A DNA stretch of 64,000 bases from Escherichia coli (GCF_965641715.1 NZ_OZ282453.1); one strand, 5' to 3'. Positions 33,420 through 57,142 are shown, counted from the stretch's first letter. Made by a program: numbers and translations. The notes: generated from the letters alone by a model not told the origin.

Positions 33420-34844
33420 TTACTGCATTAACAGGTAGATGGTGCTGTCGCCGCGCTGAATGTTCAGTGCCAGCACAGACGGTTTGCTGTCGAGAACTTT
33501 ACGCAGTTCAGCGATGTTTTTCACTGCCTGCTGGTTCGCGCCAATAATCACATCACCTTTCTTCAGGCCGATCTGCGCAGCCGGAGTGCCCGTTTTCACG
33601 TTGTTCACTACCACGCCCTGATCTTTGCCTTTGTTGCTCATCTCAGCACCTTCAATGCCGTTGAAGATGGAGCTGGAATCAACCTGATTCTGGCTGCTCT
33701 GCTGCAGTTCCAGATTCACGTTGACCTGCTTACCGTCGCGCAGCAAGCCCAGGGTCAGTTTGCTGCCCACCGGCATAGTACCCACCTGAGCACGCAGTGC
33801 GGCAAAGCTGCTGATCGGCTTACCGTTCAGTGAGGTGATCACATCACCCGCTTTAATGCCCGCTTTTGCAGCGGAGGAGTTAGGCAGAACCTGGCTTACG
33901 AAAGCACCGCGCTGGGCGTCAACTTTCATCGCTTTCGCCAGTTCGGAGTTCAGCTCAGTCCCCATAATACCCAGCTCACCGCGTTTCACCTGGCCGTATT
34001 CCACCATCTGCGAGGTCAGGTTTTTCACCATGTTGCTCGGGATAGCAAAACCGATACCGATGTTGCCGCCGTCCGGTGCGAGGATCGCGGTGTTGATACC
34101 GATCAGTTCGCCGTTCAGGTTAACCAGCGCACCACCGGAGTTACCACGGTTGATCGCTGCATCGGTCTGGATGAAGTTTTCGTAGTTTTCGGCATTCAGG
34201 CCGCTACGCCCCAGCGCAGAGACAATCCCGGAAGTTACCGTCTCGCCCAAACCAAACGGGTTACCAATCGCTACGGTGTAATCACCCACGCGCAGTGCAT
34301 CAGAATCCGCCATCTTAATTGCGGTCAAGTTTTTCGGGTTCTGGATTTGGATCAGCGCGATATCAGAGCGCGGATCTTTGCCAACCATCTTCGCGTCGAA
34401 CTTACGGCCATCGCTCAGTTGAACTTTAATGACCGTCGCGTTATCAACAACGTGGTTGTTGGTGACGACATAGCCTTTATCGGCATCAATGATGACGCCG
34501 GAACCCAGCGCCATGAATTTCTGTTGCTGGCCGCCACCATTACCGCCCTGGCCACCCTGGCAGAACGGAGAGCTCTGGAACGGAGAACCTTCCTGGCAGA
34601 ACGGAGAATCATCACCGAAGAACTGCTGGAAATTACGCGGCATACGCGGCGTATTAACGGTTGTGCTACCTTCTACGTTAATGCTGACCACTGAAGGCAT
34701 CACCTTTTCGAGCATCGGTGCAAGGCTTGGCATCTGCTGGGCTGTCGTTGCTGAAGAAGTCTCAGCCGCCGTTGCAGAGAGCGGAGATAACGCCAAACCT
34801 AAACTCAGAGCCAGTGCACTCAGTGCTAATGTGGTTTTTTTCAT
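33420..34844 (-). CDS. degP: Periplasmic serine endoprotease/chaperone DegP (HtrA)
   Basis: 474 aa ORF, signal peptide, trypsin-like protease domain (GNSGG) and two PDZ domains. Confidence 0.97.
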   Translation of the reverse strand: MKKTTLALSALALSLGLALSPLSATAAETSSATTAQQMPSLAPMLEKVMPSVVSINVEGSTTVNTPRMPRNFQQFFGDDSPFCQEGSPFQSSPFCQGGQGGNGGGQQQKFMALGSGVIIDADKGYVVTNNHVVDNATVIKVQLSDGRKFDAKMVGKDPRSDIALIQIQNPKNLTAIKMADSDALRVGDYTVAIGNPFGLGETVTSGIVSALGRSGLNAENYENFIQTDAAINRGNSGGALVNLNGELIGINTAILAPDGGNIGIGFAIPSNMVKNLTSQMVEYGQVKRGELGIMGTELNSELAKAMKVDAQRGAFVSQVLPNSSAAKAGIKAGDVITSLNGKPISSFAALRAQVGTMPVGSKLTLGLLRDGKQVNVNLELQQSSQNQVDSSSIFNGIEGAEMSNKGKDQGVVVNNVKTGTPAAQIGLKKGDVIIGANQQAVKNIAELRKVLDSKPSVLALNIQRGDSTIYLLMQ

Positions 34845-34885
34845 GTATTTCAGTCTCGATTAACAGATAACGCAAAATTGCTGTG

Positions 34886-47606: not shown

Positions 47607-50141
47607 TTAATTACTACCAAACATATCCTTAATCCAACCGGCTACACCGTCGCTATCTTTCTGCTCTTGCTGAGCAGGTTGCTGTTGCGGCTGTTGCTGC
47701 GGCTGTGAAGACTGATCAAACGGGTTGCCTGACGGCTGCTGCTGCATCTCACTCTGCTGGCACAGCGATTGCGGATCGCTGGTCCAGACCGGCAAGACAC
47801 GCATGCCACCGCTGCAAACAAAGTTGCCGTCGTAGTCCACGCCCATATCTGCAATATCTTCTGGCGGAACAAGATTCAGCGGCGTTGGCGTCTGGTTAGC
47901 CAGATAACGCTGATAAATCGACATTGCCCCGCTGGCACCATACAGTTTGGTCGGCTGGTTGTTATCACGGCCTACCCAGGTGATGGTCACCGTGCTGCCG
48001 TCAATGCCCGCAAACCAGGTATCTACGTTATTGTTGGTAGTCCCTGTTTTCCCTGCCAGATGCAGGTTCGGGTATTTCGCCCCAAGCTGACGACCCGTAC
48101 CACGTTGTACCACCTGCTGCATGGTCCATAGTGTCAGATACGCCGCCTGCGCCGGAACAGCGCGTTCCGCCTGCGGGAAGCTCTGATACAGCACTTTGCC
48201 ATCTTCCGCGATTACCGAACGCAGCGCAGAAAGCGGTGCACGGTTACCGCCGCTGGCGATGGTCTGGAATGCCTGCGCCACTTCGATTGGCGTTAAGTTC
48301 AACGCCCCCAGCAGCATCGCCGGAACCGGATGCAGCTGATCTTTCGGCACGCCCAGTTTAATCCAGGTATCCGTAACCGCAGGCAGCCCCAGCGCCATCC
48401 CCAGATTTACCGTCGGCACGTTCATCGAACGGGTCAACGCATCCACCAGCATCACTCTGCCGCTTTCGCTATAACGACGGTCATCGTTCTGCGGTGACCA
48501 GACCTGGCCATTCGGCTGACGTAGCGCGATTGGCGCATCCGCAATCCACGTATTCAGACGATAGATTTTCGGCTGGCTTAAGGCCGTCAGATAAGTCGCT
48601 GGTTTTGCAAGGGAACCAATCGAACGACGCGCCTGCATCGCACGGTTGTAGCCCGCAAACTGCGGCTCAGAACCTCCGACCATCGCACGAACTTCACCAC
48701 TAAAGCGGTCGACGACCACAATCGCGGTTTCCAGATCGCTCAGCTTACGCTGTTTCTTAAGTGCCGGAATGCCTTCCACGGCGGCTTTTTCTGCCGCGTC
48801 CTGGGCCACCGAGTCAAAGGTAGTGAAGATCTTCACGCCGGAGAGATCTTTTACCTTATCGCCTAATTTAGCCTGAAGCTCCTGACGCACCAGTTGCATA
48901 AAGGCTGGCTGAGGAGAGATCACCCCACCGCGCGGCTGAACACCCAGCGGACGCGCACTCAACATGTCATAGAGTTCTTGATCAATAATCTGTTGCTGTT
49001 GCAGCAGACGCAGTACCAGATTACGTCGCTCCAGCGCCAGTTTCGGGTTACGCCACGGGTTGTAGATGGACGCTCCTTTCACCATACCGACTAACAGCGC
49101 CTGTTGATCGAGGCTCAATTCTTCTACCGGGCGACCAAAGTAATACAAGCTCGCCAGCGGGAAGCCGCGGATTTCGTTGTCGCCGCTCTGACCGAGATAC
49201 ACCTCGTTCATATACAGCTCAAGAATACGGTCTTTGCTGTAACGCGCGTCCATGATCAGCGCCATGTAAGCTTCGTTCGCTTTACGCCAGTAAGAGCGCT
49301 CGCTGGAGAGGAACAGGTTTTTCACCAGCTGTTGCGTCAGCGTACTCGCCCCCTGCACCGTGCGTCCGGCTGTCAGGTTTGCCAGCACCGCACGTCCGAT
49401 GGAGTAGAGACTGATTCCATCATGCTCGTAGAAATGGCGGTCTTCTGTCGCCAGCAAAGTATCCACCAGCAAATCCGGGAAACCACTGCGCGGCACAAAC
49501 AAACGCTGCTCACCGTTTGGTGAGGAGATCATGGTGATCAGACGCGGATCAAGACGGAAGAAACCGAACTGACGGTTGTTCTCCATATTGACGATCGTCG
49601 CCAAATGATCGCCATCAAAGGTCAGACGCGCGCGCACCTGTCCTTCTTTACTGTCCGGGAAATCAAACGGACGGCGAATCATCTCAATGCTGTTGGCCTG
49701 CACGGTAAATTCGCCAGGACGGGTCATTTTTGACACCTGACGATACTGGGTTGCCTCCAGCAGCTTCACCATTTCGTTCTTGCTGATGGTCATGTCTGGC
49801 TCAAGGTTGACCATTCGACCATAAACTGCCGCAGGCAGTTGCCAGACCTTGCCATCAATACGGCTACGAATTTTTTGATCGAGATAAACGCCGTAAATGG
49901 CGATCAGCACGGCAAAAACGATAGCCAGTTTTAACAGCAGCCATAGCCAGCCGCGTTTGCCACGAGGCTTACGCCCTTTGCCTTTGCCCTTACCTTTGCG
50001 CGGCATCGGTTCTTCATCCTCATAGTCATCATAATCGTCGTAATCATCGTCATCTTCGTAACGACGACGGCTTACCTTTTGTTTGACCGGACGCGTCGGT
50101 TTCCCTTTGCGTCCAATTGGCTCGCGGTCATTCCCGGCCAT
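47607..50141 (-). CDS. mrcB: Penicillin-binding protein 1B (bifunctional glycosyltransferase/transpeptidase)
   Basis: 844 aa from [15 protein letters not shown]...; acidic [15 protein letters not shown] and (KG)n N-terminal tract, TM helix, SxxK transpeptidase domain. Confidence 0.96.
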
Positions 50142-52839: not shown

Positions 52840-54089
<1,250 letters not shown>

Positions 54090-54266
54090 TAAAGTAAGTA
54101 ACTGGTTAATTTACATTCTGGTCGCGTGCGCAAATACGCTTTTCCTCACACAGTTGTCAAGTGTTACGTTTAGATAATTGCTATCCGGAAAAGCATCTGC
54201 TATTTATAGCGGCCTCATTTTTCCCCCGAACATGGGGATCGATAGTGCGTGTTAAGGAGAAGCAAC

Positions 54267-54722
54267 ATGCAAGAAGGGCAAAACCGTAAAACATCGTCCC
54301 TGAGTATTCTCGCCATCGCTGGGGTGGAACCATATCAGGAGAAGCCGGGCGAAGAGTATATGAATGAAGCCCAGCTGGCGCACTTCCGTCGTATTCTGGA
54401 AGCATGGCGTAATCAACTCAGGGATGAAGTCGATCGCACCGTTACACATATGCAGGATGAAGCAGCCAACTTCCCGGACCCGGTAGACCGTGCAGCCCAG
54501 GAAGAAGAGTTCAGCCTCGAACTGCGTAACCGCGATCGCGAGCGTAAGCTGATCAAAAAGATCGAGAAGACGCTGAAAAAAGTGGAAGACGAAGATTTCG
54601 GCTACTGTGAATCCTGCGGTGTTGAAATTGGTATTCGCCGTCTGGAAGCGCGCCCGACAGCCGATCTGTGCATCGACTGCAAAACGCTGGCTGAAATTCG
54701 CGAAAAACAGATGGCTGGCTAA
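54267..54722 (+). CDS. dksA: RNA polymerase-binding transcription factor DksA
   Basis: 151 aa from [19 protein letters not shown]...; C4 zinc finger [25 protein letters not shown]. Confidence 0.96.
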
Positions 54723-54748
54723 TTACAGCCGTTCCATCACGTTTACCA

Positions 54749-54780
54749 CAGGCGGGAAATGCTCCCGCCTTATTTTTTGT
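54749..54780 (+). terminator. Rho-independent terminator downstream of dksA
   Basis: ggcggga aatgc tcccgcc perfect 7-bp stem followed by ttattttttgt. Confidence 0.8.
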
Positions 54781-54788
54781 TCAAAGAG

Positions 54789-55685
54789 ATGACAGACACA
54801 CACTATATTGGCCGCTTCGCCCCCTCTCCTTCCGGCGAGCTTCATTTTGGTTCTCTGATTGCTGCGCTTGGCAGCTATTTGCAGGCTCGCGCCCGGCAAG
54901 GTCGCTGGCTGGTACGCATAGAAGATATCGACCCGCCTCGTGAAGTTCCCGGTGCCGCAGAAACTATCCTGCGCCAGCTGGAACATTACGGCCTGCACTG
55001 GGACGGCGATGTTCTCTGGCAATCGCAACGTCACCACGCCTATCGCGAAGCACTCGCCTGGTTACATGAGCAAGGACTAAGTTATTACTGCACCTGCACG
55101 CGTGCACGTATTCAAAGCATTGGCGGTATTTACGACGGCCATTGCCGGGAATTGCATCATGGACCAGGCAACGCCGCAGTGCGTATCCGCCAGCAGCATC
55201 CGGTCACCCAGTTTACTGACCTGCTGCGCGGCATTATTCACGCCGACGAAAAACTGGCACGGGAAGATTTTATTATTCATCGCCGTGATGGTTTGTTTGC
55301 CTATAACCTGGCGGTGGTGGTCGATGATCACTTCCAGGGCGTGAGCGAAATTGTCCGCGGGGCAGATTTGATCGAACCGACAGTGCGGCAAATCTCGCTG
55401 TACCAGCTTTTTGGCTGGAAAGTGCCAGATTACATTCATCTGCCGCTGGCGCTTAATCCACAAGGCGCTAAACTTTCCAAGCAGAATCATGCGCCTGCGT
55501 TGCCGAAAGGCGATCCACGCCCGGTACTAATCGCGGCACTTCAATTTCTGGGGCAGCAGGCAGAAGCACACTGGCAGGATTTCAGCGTCGAGCAAATCCT
55601 TCAGTCAGCCGTCAAAAACTGGCGGCTTACCGCAGTGCCTGAGTCGGCAATTGTAAATTCAACATTCTCAAATGCGTCATGCTGA
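54789..55685 (+). CDS. gluQ: Glutamyl-Q tRNA(Asp) synthetase (GluQ-RS, YadB)
   Basis: 298 aa from [23 protein letters not shown]... (class I aaRS HIGH-like motif); the ATG at 54759 lies inside the dksA terminator loop so the start is placed at 54789 behind aaagag SD. Confidence 0.9.
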
Positions 55686-55744
55686 GCTATGATTAGCCGC
55701 TATTTTTTTGTCCTGAATGATGTTTGACACTACCGAGGTGTACT

Positions 55745-57142
55745 ATTTTTACCCGAGTCGCTAATTTTTGCCGCAAGGTGCTAAGCCGCGAGGAAAGCGA
55801 GGCTGAACAGGCAGTCGCCCGTCCACAGGTGACGGTGATCCCGCGTGAGCAGCATGCTATTTCCCGCAAAGATATCAGTGAAAATGCCCTGAAGGTAATG
55901 TACAGGCTCAATAAAGCGGGATACGAAGCCTGGCTGGTTGGCGGCGGCGTGCGCGACCTGTTACTTGGCAAAAAGCCGAAAGACTTTGACGTAACCACTA
56001 ACGCCACGCCTGAGCAGGTGCGCAAACTGTTCCGTAACTGCCGCCTGGTGGGTCGCCGTTTCCGTCTGGCTCATGTGATGTTTGGCCCAGAGATTATCGA
56101 AGTTGCGACCTTCCGTGGACACCACGAAGGTAACGTCAGCGACCGCACGACCTCCCAACGCGGGCAAAACGGCATGTTGCTGCGCGACAACATTTTCGGC
56201 TCCATCGAAGAAGACGCCCAGCGCCGCGATTTCACTATCAACAGCCTGTATTACAGCGTAGCGGATTTTACCGTCCGTGATTACGTTGGCGGTATGAAGG
56301 ATCTGAAGGACGGCGTTATCCGTCTGATTGGTAACCCGGAAACGCGCTACCGTGAAGATCCGGTACGTATGCTGCGCGCGGTACGTTTTGCCGCCAAATT
56401 GGGTATGCGCATCAGCCCGGAAACCGCAGAACCGATCCCTCGCCTCGCTACCCTGCTGAACGATATCCCACCGGCACGCCTGTTTGAAGAATCGCTTAAA
56501 CTGCTACAAGCGGGCTACGGTTACGAAACCTATAAGCTGCTGTGTGAATATCATCTGTTCCAGCCACTGTTCCCGACCATTACCCGCTACTTCACGGAAA
56601 ATGGCGACAGCCCGATGGAGCGGATCATTGAGCAGGTACTGAAGAACACCGATACGCGTATTCATAACGATATGCGCGTTAACCCGGCGTTTTTGTTTGC
56701 CGCCATGTTCTGGTACCCACTGCTGGAGACGGCACAGAAGATCGCCCAGGAAAGCGGCCTGACCTATCACGACGCTTTCGCGCTGGCGATGAACGACGTG
56801 CTGGACGAAGCCTGCCGTTCACTGGCAATCCCGAAACGTCTGACGACGTTAACCCGCGATATCTGGCAGTTGCAGTTGCGTATGTCCCGACGTCAGGGTA
56901 AACGTGCATGGAAACTGCTGGAGCATCCTAAGTTCCGTGCGGCTTATGACCTGTTGGCCTTGCGAGCTGAAGTTGAACGTAACGCTGAACTGCAGCGTCT
57001 GGTGAAATGGTGGGGTGAGTTCCAGGTTTCCGCGCCACCAGACCAAAAAGGGATGCTCAACGAGCTGGATGAAGAACCGTCACCGCGTCGCCGTACTCGT
57101 CGTCCACGCAAACGCGCACCGCGTCGTGAGGGTACCGCATGA
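55745..57142 (+). CDS. pcnB: Poly(A) polymerase I
   Basis: ORF open from stop at 55718; no in-frame ATG before the conserved N-terminus; ATT at 55745 preceded by gaggtg SD is taken as the start (literature-reported AUU start), TTG at 55724 is the alternative; 465 aa. Confidence 0.9.

Follow-up and report, generated by a model that had tools for sequence, protein, structure and literature searches.

The DNA analyzed here, referred to as the window, is a 64,000-nucleotide stretch of an Escherichia coli genome (GCF_965641715.1 NZ_OZ282453.1), and its positions 53385-57142 correspond to the sfsA-dksA-gluQ-pcnB region of E. coli. The 1.55 kb around the terminator that lies between dksA and gluQ were matched in 5,424 of 5,426 complete E. 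coli genomes, and the best-matching genome (99.9%) carries annotated dksA, gluQRS and pcnB genes. Over the dksA-gluQ segment (window 54200-55750), only 122 of the 5,424 genomes are at least 99% identical to the window, and the best-matching isolate over this segment, at 99.9%, was obtained from fresh water in the Galápagos. A variable segment is suggested for the last 24 kb (window 40000-64000), of which only 546 genomes contain at least 80% as one continuous piece. The features of the dksA-gluQ junction are listed in Table 1.

Table 1. Features of the dksA-gluQ junction, in window coordinates.
Feature	Position	Strand	Basis or remark
dksA CDS, 151 aa	54267..54722	+	RefSeq annotation of the 99.9% identical E. 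coli record; ORF list
dksA stop codon TAA	54720-54722	+	sequence
Terminator hairpin, whole	54750-54770	+	sequence, terminator scan, folding, conservation
5' arm AGGCGGGA	54750-54757	+	sequence
Hairpin loop AATGC	54758-54762	+	sequence
ATG1, start of the 308-aa ORF, inside the hairpin loop	54759-54761	+	sequence; start not used
Longest gluQ ORF, 308 aa	54759-55685	+	ORF list
3' arm TCCCGCCT	54763-54770	+	sequence
U-tract TATTTTTTGT	54771-54780	+	sequence; mapped RNA 3' end at 54774
AAAGAG, proposed SD-like element	54783-54788	+	not a functional SD by position or pairing
ATG2, in frame, true gluQ start	54789-54791	+	sequence, annotation, N-terminal data
gluQ (gluQRS/yadB) CDS from ATG2, 298 aa	54789..55685	+	PGAP, conservation, Edman, N-terminomics, PDB

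A gap of 27 nt (54723-54749) separates the dksA stop codon from an 8-bp stem, in which a perfect 7-bp stem (GGCGGGA, 54751-54757; TCCCGCC, 54763-54769) is lengthened by an A-T pair (54750/54770). Six of the eight pairs are G-C, the loop has 5 nt, the folding energy of the hairpin is −14.5 kcal/mol, and the stem is followed directly on its 3' side by a U-rich tract (UAUUUUUUGU), in which U occupies 7 of the first 9 positions. The earlier note on this DNA had described a hairpin and the tract TATTTTTTGT 27 nt past the dksA stop, with the first ATG of the longest gluQ ORF inside the hairpin loop, and both readings are confirmed by the sequence. This hairpin was the top terminator-like match of a consensus scan (8 pairs, 6 G-C), but the generic scan by itself performed no better than chance (5 sites versus 3.4 expected in 3 kb); the case for a real site rests on conservation and on published mapping. 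The hairpin was kept in the minimum-energy folds of both 78-nt and 191-nt contexts, the folding z-score of the 78-nt region was −2.65, and the 64-kb window has a single occurrence of GGCGGGR-N2-8-YCCCGCC, versus 0.00 expected from shuffles.

In the read-through RNA (54771-54791), the U-tract also pairs weakly with AAGAGAUG (−2.1 kcal/mol, 8 pairs including 3 G-U). This pairing would cover the gluQ start codon, for which an unpaired probability of 0.14 was computed at the near-identical junction L001. We assign no role to this second hairpin, which is too weak and is not conserved (median unpaired probability of 0.32 in other genera).

The junction was compared across species using 80 fetched GluQ-RS loci (76-96% identical), one genome per species, from about 25 enterobacterial genera; the comparison set consisted of 79 fetched loci, L001 and the window, 81 loci altogether. 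A GGCGGGR-loop-YCCCGCC core is present upstream of gluQ in 75 of the 81 loci, and its 3' end precedes the conserved ATG by 12-26 nt. There is free variation in the loop and on both sides of the hairpin (mean column identity of 54%), whereas the stem columns are 90-100% identical. The six central stem pairs are nearly invariant and consequently carry no covariation information, while compensatory changes occur at the top and base of the stem, where alignment pair 38-45 changes from A-U to G-C in five sequences and further compensatory changes are found at pairs 39-44, 31-52, 30-53 and 29-54. Across the alignment, 84.4% of the cells pair, compared to 49-59% after a shift of the 3' partners by 1-3 columns. 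The U-tract is less uniform: the longest T run is three or shorter in 38 of the 75 loci with the hairpin core, so that the tract is interrupted in about half of the species. In Enterobacter, for example, it reads TTGTTACTGTTGAT though the hairpin core is kept.

The two candidate start codons of gluQ also differ in their distribution. An ATG equivalent to ATG2 is present in all 81 loci. In contrast, an in-frame ATG in the loop is found only in the window, the near-identical L001, Escherichia sp. E1V33 and E. albertii (L004 and L005), and is absent from every other genus among the 81 loci. E. whittamii has ATA in place of ATG1, the divergent E. coli AF16 has TTAC, and in Escherichia MOD1-EC7003 a T-run shorter by 1 nt puts the loop ATG out of frame. 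The comparison independently supports both the hairpin and the shorter gene model.

Beyond the Enterobacteriaceae, four loci with 51-67% identical GluQ-RS, a small sample, differ in layout. One distant locus has a different hairpin about 30 nt upstream of gluQ. Among the three loci with GluQ-RS of 51-54% identity, L088 (1081-1201) has a 119-nt gap between dksA and gluQ and a canonical terminator with an A-tract, stem and U-tract (AAAAGGCAGAGC...GCTCTGCCTTTTTT) 45 nt upstream of gluQ, and L086 (1182-1201) and L087 (1183-1201) have gaps of 17-18 nt in which no hairpin was found; none of the three has a Shine-Dalgarno (SD) sequence before gluQ. By these four loci, the terminator design is not universal outside the Enterobacteriaceae, and this variation fits the remark of Caballero et al. 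(2012; PMC3542578) that the dksA-gluQ-rs intergenic distance differs among species.

Transcript ends have been mapped at this site in vivo. Term-seq of E. coli K-12 (Adams et al., 2021; PMC7815308, supplementary tables) placed a 3' end at 160097(−), which corresponds to window position 54774, the fifth nucleotide after ...CCCGCC and inside the U-tract, and the 61-nt K-12 sequence printed with this 3' end is identical to window 54724-54784. The average read count was 3,097,035 in LB at OD 0.4 and 254,767 at OD 2.0, values that carry no normalization between conditions. The intrinsic-terminator score at this site is 7.47, where scores of 3 or more are taken to mean intrinsic termination (PMC7815308). 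Coverage in 800-nt windows was 250 upstream and 62 downstream of the site without bicyclomycin, and 250 and 72 with it, and with a Rho score of 1.16 the site was not called a significant Rho termination region (PMC7815308). The mapping of the dksA 3' end by Term-seq, which the earlier note had put forward as a check, is thus available in published form and gives a very abundant, Rho-independent 3' end in the U-tract. This end lies 4-5 nt past the stem rather than the usual 7-9 nt, and therefore exonucleolytic trimming or processing may contribute to it.

The expression of gluQ-rs was studied in Shigella flexneri by Caballero et al. (2012; PMC3542578); our literature search for later work on gluQ-rs expression found only this paper. 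Its reporter work, and the Edman sequencing described below, used S. flexneri and a T7 overexpression construct rather than the strain of the window. RT-PCR revealed a transcript common to dksA and gluQ-rs; without the dksA promoters, a lacZ fusion showed baseline activity; removal of the intergenic region raised lacZ activity 10-fold above the native arrangement; and mutations disrupting the stem raised it more than 2-fold (PMC3542578). These data bear out the expectation of the earlier note that gluQ is expressed by read-through from the dksA promoters, as indicated by the co-transcript and the baseline fusion, and the lacZ fusions that the note had proposed as a check are likewise published. 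The effect of the stem mutations (little over 2-fold) is smaller than that of the deletion (10-fold); the hairpin may not be the whole cause of the effect of the intergenic region.

The short distance between the stem and the mapped 3' end raises the possibility that the hairpin serves mainly in RNA stability or processing, blocking 3' exonucleases once the RNA has been terminated or cleaved farther downstream, or protecting the dksA mRNA, with RNA polymerase released elsewhere. Termination and processing look alike in Term-seq, and the hairpin core is invariant even where the U-tract is interrupted, as in Enterobacter (TTGTTACTGTTGAT). However, the reporters were transcriptional fusions, in which lacZ activity was 10-fold lower with the region and recovered more than 2-fold upon stem mutation; the high intrinsic-terminator score is accompanied by a 4-fold drop in coverage downstream; and in E. 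coli the U-tract is a good one. A stability or processing role is possible as a contribution, but because of the transcriptional fusions it is unlikely to be the whole story, and we give it a low probability as the main function.

Alternatively, gluQ might have a conditional promoter of its own, e.g., of the sigma-E type, inside dksA or in the intergenic region, so that read-through would be one route among others. A sigma-24 site for gluQ-rs is predicted in RegulonDB, as stated by Caballero et al. (2012; PMC3542578), and the reporter without dksA promoters was tried under few growth conditions (PMC3542578). That reporter was nevertheless at baseline, and a scan of 54100-54800 for GGAACTT-N15-17-TCAAA-like sites found none. 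A sigma-E-type promoter at the TCAAA at 54781 was considered and rejected, as the −35-like element is 19 nt away, which is too far, and transcription would start after the ATG. Sigma-70-like matches were at chance level (3 versus 2.8 expected), and the one at 54780-54809 would start transcription downstream of the gluQ start codon and was likewise rejected as a promoter. A separate promoter is thus very improbable.

A further possibility is that the terminator is a regulated attenuator, in which a riboswitch, or protein- or growth-phase-dependent antitermination, adjusts gluQ expression. In stationary phase the intergenic RT-PCR amplicon increased 20-fold, compared to 1.3-fold for the dksA and gluQ amplicons, and the authors left regulated read-through possible (Caballero et al., 2012; PMC3542578); the Term-seq count at 54774 is also lower at OD 2.0 than at OD 0.4, with the limit on comparing the two conditions given above. 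On the other hand, end-point RT-PCR is semi-quantitative, and the authors' own riboswitch search was negative (PMC3542578). Neither an antiterminator nor an aptamer was found upstream of the hairpin in our analysis: the 191-nt fold (54640-54830) contains no competing structure, no Rfam family matches the dksA-gluQ terminator locus at the gathering score, and conservation between genera does not extend to the sequence upstream of the hairpin. Regulated attenuation is accordingly an unlikely account of this element.

The position of the gluQ start codon was the second subject of the earlier note, which had favored ATG2, and with it a 298-aa GluQ-RS, over the ATG in the hairpin loop. This choice is borne out by several lines of evidence besides the presence of ATG2 in all loci compared. 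The gluQRS start annotated by PGAP is the equivalent of 54789 in three independent genomes. The protein matches the characterized and crystallized glutamyl-Q tRNA(Asp) synthetase, GluQ-RS (YadB), including its N-terminus: the sequences in PDB 1NZJ and 4A91 are 298 aa long, and their full length aligns to residues 11-308 of the long ORF (E = 1.8e-202). Caballero et al. (2012; PMC3542578) reported that the first AUG lies in the bulge (loop) of the terminator and the second AUG 27 nt downstream, and that the N-terminus of purified GluQ-RS is TDTQYIGRFAP by Edman sequencing, which gives a protein of 298 residues. N-terminal proteomics, proposed as a check in the earlier note, has also been published. 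In the N-terminomics data set TRAINSPOTTER (NAR 2026; PMC13245402), Table S1 row 32 lists an alternative start of gluQ at residue 11 with the peptide MTDTQYIGR, shortening the protein from 308 to 298 aa and labeled "N-terminal truncation (10aa)". In the same data set only Met11 is listed for gluQ, with no row for a Met1 N-terminus, and the gluQ row records neither an SD proxy nor Ribo-seq/Ribo-RET support (PMC13245402).

It could still be argued that a 308-aa protein is also made from the loop ATG, or is even the main product. The K-12 reference annotation (NC_000913.3 b0144, locus L084; 159186..160112) still has a 308-aa gluQ that begins with the loop ATG, TRAINSPOTTER quotes a length of 308 from UniProt (PMC13245402), and 4,456 of 5,424 E. 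coli genomes share, without a mismatch, the 66 nt that include ATG1. Moreover, ATG1 is preceded by AGGCGGG, which provides the better anti-SD pairing, −6.3 kcal/mol at a spacing of 1-2. At the usable spacing of 4-12 nt, however, the pairing of ATG1 is only −2.5 kcal/mol, and both ATG1 and the purine-rich run upstream of it are buried in the −14.5 kcal/mol hairpin. Edman sequencing and native N-terminomics found the Met11 N-terminus alone, the 10 extra residues are not conserved, and an in-frame ATG1 is lacking in E. whittamii, E. coli AF16, Escherichia MOD1-EC7003 and all other genera. We regard translation from ATG1 as essentially excluded.

One detail of the earlier note does not hold, its suggestion that AAAGAG is an SD-like sequence serving ATG2. 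This element directly abuts ATG2 (spacing 0), and its anti-SD pairing reaches no more than −1.7 kcal/mol, as compared with −9.2 kcal/mol at a spacing of 6 for the SD of dksA (UUAAGGAGA); it is ruled out as an SD by both its spacing and its pairing. In E. coli F5656C1 the sequence at this place is AACGAG. No anti-SD pairing was found for ATG2 at spacings of 4-12, and pairing of −4 kcal/mol or stronger at these spacings precedes gluQ in none of 66 distinct enterobacterial contexts; the four more distant loci have no SD before gluQ either. The gene is thus consistently SD-less in the species examined, as Caballero et al. (2012; PMC3542578) had noted in reporting no obvious SD for gluQ-rs.

Overall, the element is very probably the Rho-independent (intrinsic) terminator at the 3' end of dksA, efficient but leaky, which acts as a fixed valve within a dksA-gluQ operon. 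In this model, RNA polymerase starting at the dksA promoters would transcribe dksA and then meet the GC-rich hairpin and the U-tract, where most complexes would release their RNA, giving rise to an abundant monocistronic dksA mRNA. Read-through into gluQ is roughly 10-25%, i.e., about 25% by RNA coverage past the site and about 10% by lacZ; the word "strong" used for this terminator in the earlier note is therefore better replaced by "efficient but leaky". Having no promoter of its own, as the baseline fusion indicates for the conditions used, gluQ would be transcribed by this read-through. Ribosomes on the read-through mRNA would start at 54789, 19 nt past the stem core, in a U/A-rich, SD-less context, and the product of this start is the 298-aa GluQ-RS. 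ATG1 would be a lineage-specific accident of the loop sequence, held unused in a stable hairpin. Termination and SD-less initiation together would keep GluQ-RS far below DksA and tie its transcription to the dksA promoters. The hairpin and its conservation, the RNA 3' end and its independence of Rho, the effects in reporters, the absence of an internal promoter under the conditions used, and the N-terminus of the protein have been shown, by the present analysis or in the papers cited. We infer that low, dksA-coupled expression of GluQ-RS is the purpose of the arrangement, and gluQ initiation presumably relies on the unstructured A/U-rich leader.

It is conceivable, with a probability that we put as low, that the hairpin does more than terminate, either as part of the gluQ initiation region, where it might serve as a 5' boundary or standby site for SD-independent, S1-dependent initiation, or as a protein-bound control of growth-phase read-through. 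This thought comes from the invariance of the core despite the decay of the U-tract and from gluQ being SD-less everywhere. The GGCGGGA/TCCCGCC core is essentially invariant over about 25 enterobacterial genera, and the same applies to clades (e.g., Enterobacter and Lelliottia) with the decayed tract TTGTTACTGTTGAT, in which just 14 nt lie between the stem and the gluQ AUG.

The S. flexneri 2457T dksA/gluQ-rs terminator (Caballero et al., 2012, BMC Microbiol 12:226; PMC3542578) is the same element as the one described here. In both, the first AUG lies in the loop and a second one follows 27 nt downstream, the protein N-terminus comes after the second Met, and an SD is lacking; the reported hairpin energy is −14.7 kcal/mol in S. 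flexneri, compared to −14.5 kcal/mol in the window. Residue 5 of GluQ-RS is His in the window, in contrast to Gln in S. flexneri and K-12. In the terminator itself there is no difference from the window, as far as the printed K-12 sequence shows.

Comparable arrangements are known in other operons. In the case of dnaG, a terminator inside the operon stands right before a low-abundance gene whose ribosome-binding site is poor as well and which is expressed by read-through. This internal terminator upstream of dnaG in rpsU-dnaG-rpoD was cited as an analogue by Caballero et al. (2012; PMC3542578), although its genes and sequence are unrelated to dksA-gluQ. The same authors cited E. coli recA-recX, in which recX is expressed by about 10% read-through of the recA terminator (PMC3542578), the sequence of which is likewise unrelated to the dksA-gluQ terminator. 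Classical attenuators and riboswitch platforms resemble dksA-gluQ in having a terminator hairpin just upstream of a coding sequence; unlike them, dksA-gluQ has no antiterminator, aptamer or leader peptide, and its upstream flank is not conserved.

The terminator, the read-through expression and the 298-aa start are all already published, and apart from the SD detail the earlier reading is correct, so the new biological value is small. The value for annotation lies in K-12 b0144 and the length quoted from UniProt, both still those of the 308-aa form with its start in the terminator loop. The long gluQ model annotated in K-12 starts at 160112, 15 nt before the mapped 3' end, and as a consequence of this model, the Term-seq study labeled the 3' end of the dksA terminator "internal to gluQ". 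Moving the K-12 start to the equivalent of 54789 would remove this artefact. The junction is also a clean teaching example, in which a leaky terminator combined with an SD-less start sets a large expression difference within one operon and couples a tRNA-modification enzyme to promoters that serve a stringent-response factor.

Several further observations concern the neighboring genes. gluQ and pcnB are consecutive genes that both have weak initiation signals. According to RefSeq, pcnB starts at an ATT codon at 55745, the known AUU start of this gene; the longest pcnB ORF opens at a TTG at 55724, and the pcnB SD, CGAGGUG, pairs at −7.2 kcal/mol with a spacing of 4. Within dksA, TRAINSPOTTER Table S1 row 33 lists an internal start at Met32, corresponding to the ATG at window 54360 (54360-54362), that gives a 120-aa proteoform (PMC13245402), and Term-seq found an internal 3' end at K-12 160387, or window 54484 (PMC7815308). 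In the dksA leader (sfsA-dksA intergenic region), a small hairpin at 54197-54219 (CTGCTATTTATAGCGG, then CCTCATTTTT) coincides with an "orphan" Term-seq 3' end at K-12 160652 (window 54219) in LB at OD 2.0, where RNAs originating upstream of the main dksA promoter may end. The dksA stop codon lies within GGCTGGCTAATTACAGCC (54713-54730), a 5-bp inverted repeat (GGCTG/CAGCC) that the scan scored as terminator-like on the minus strand, probably as a chance match.

Elsewhere in the window, the Rfam matches at the gathering score were naRNA4 at 572-648 (−) with 92.8 bits, the t44 RNA at 26596-26682 (−) with 83.5 bits, and the HtrA 5' UTR thermometer at 34839-34884 (−) with 77 bits, which look like expected E. 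coli features. An 18-nt tandem repeat with 2.7 copies, 76% matches and the consensus TCATCCTCGTAATCATCA lies at 50014-50061.
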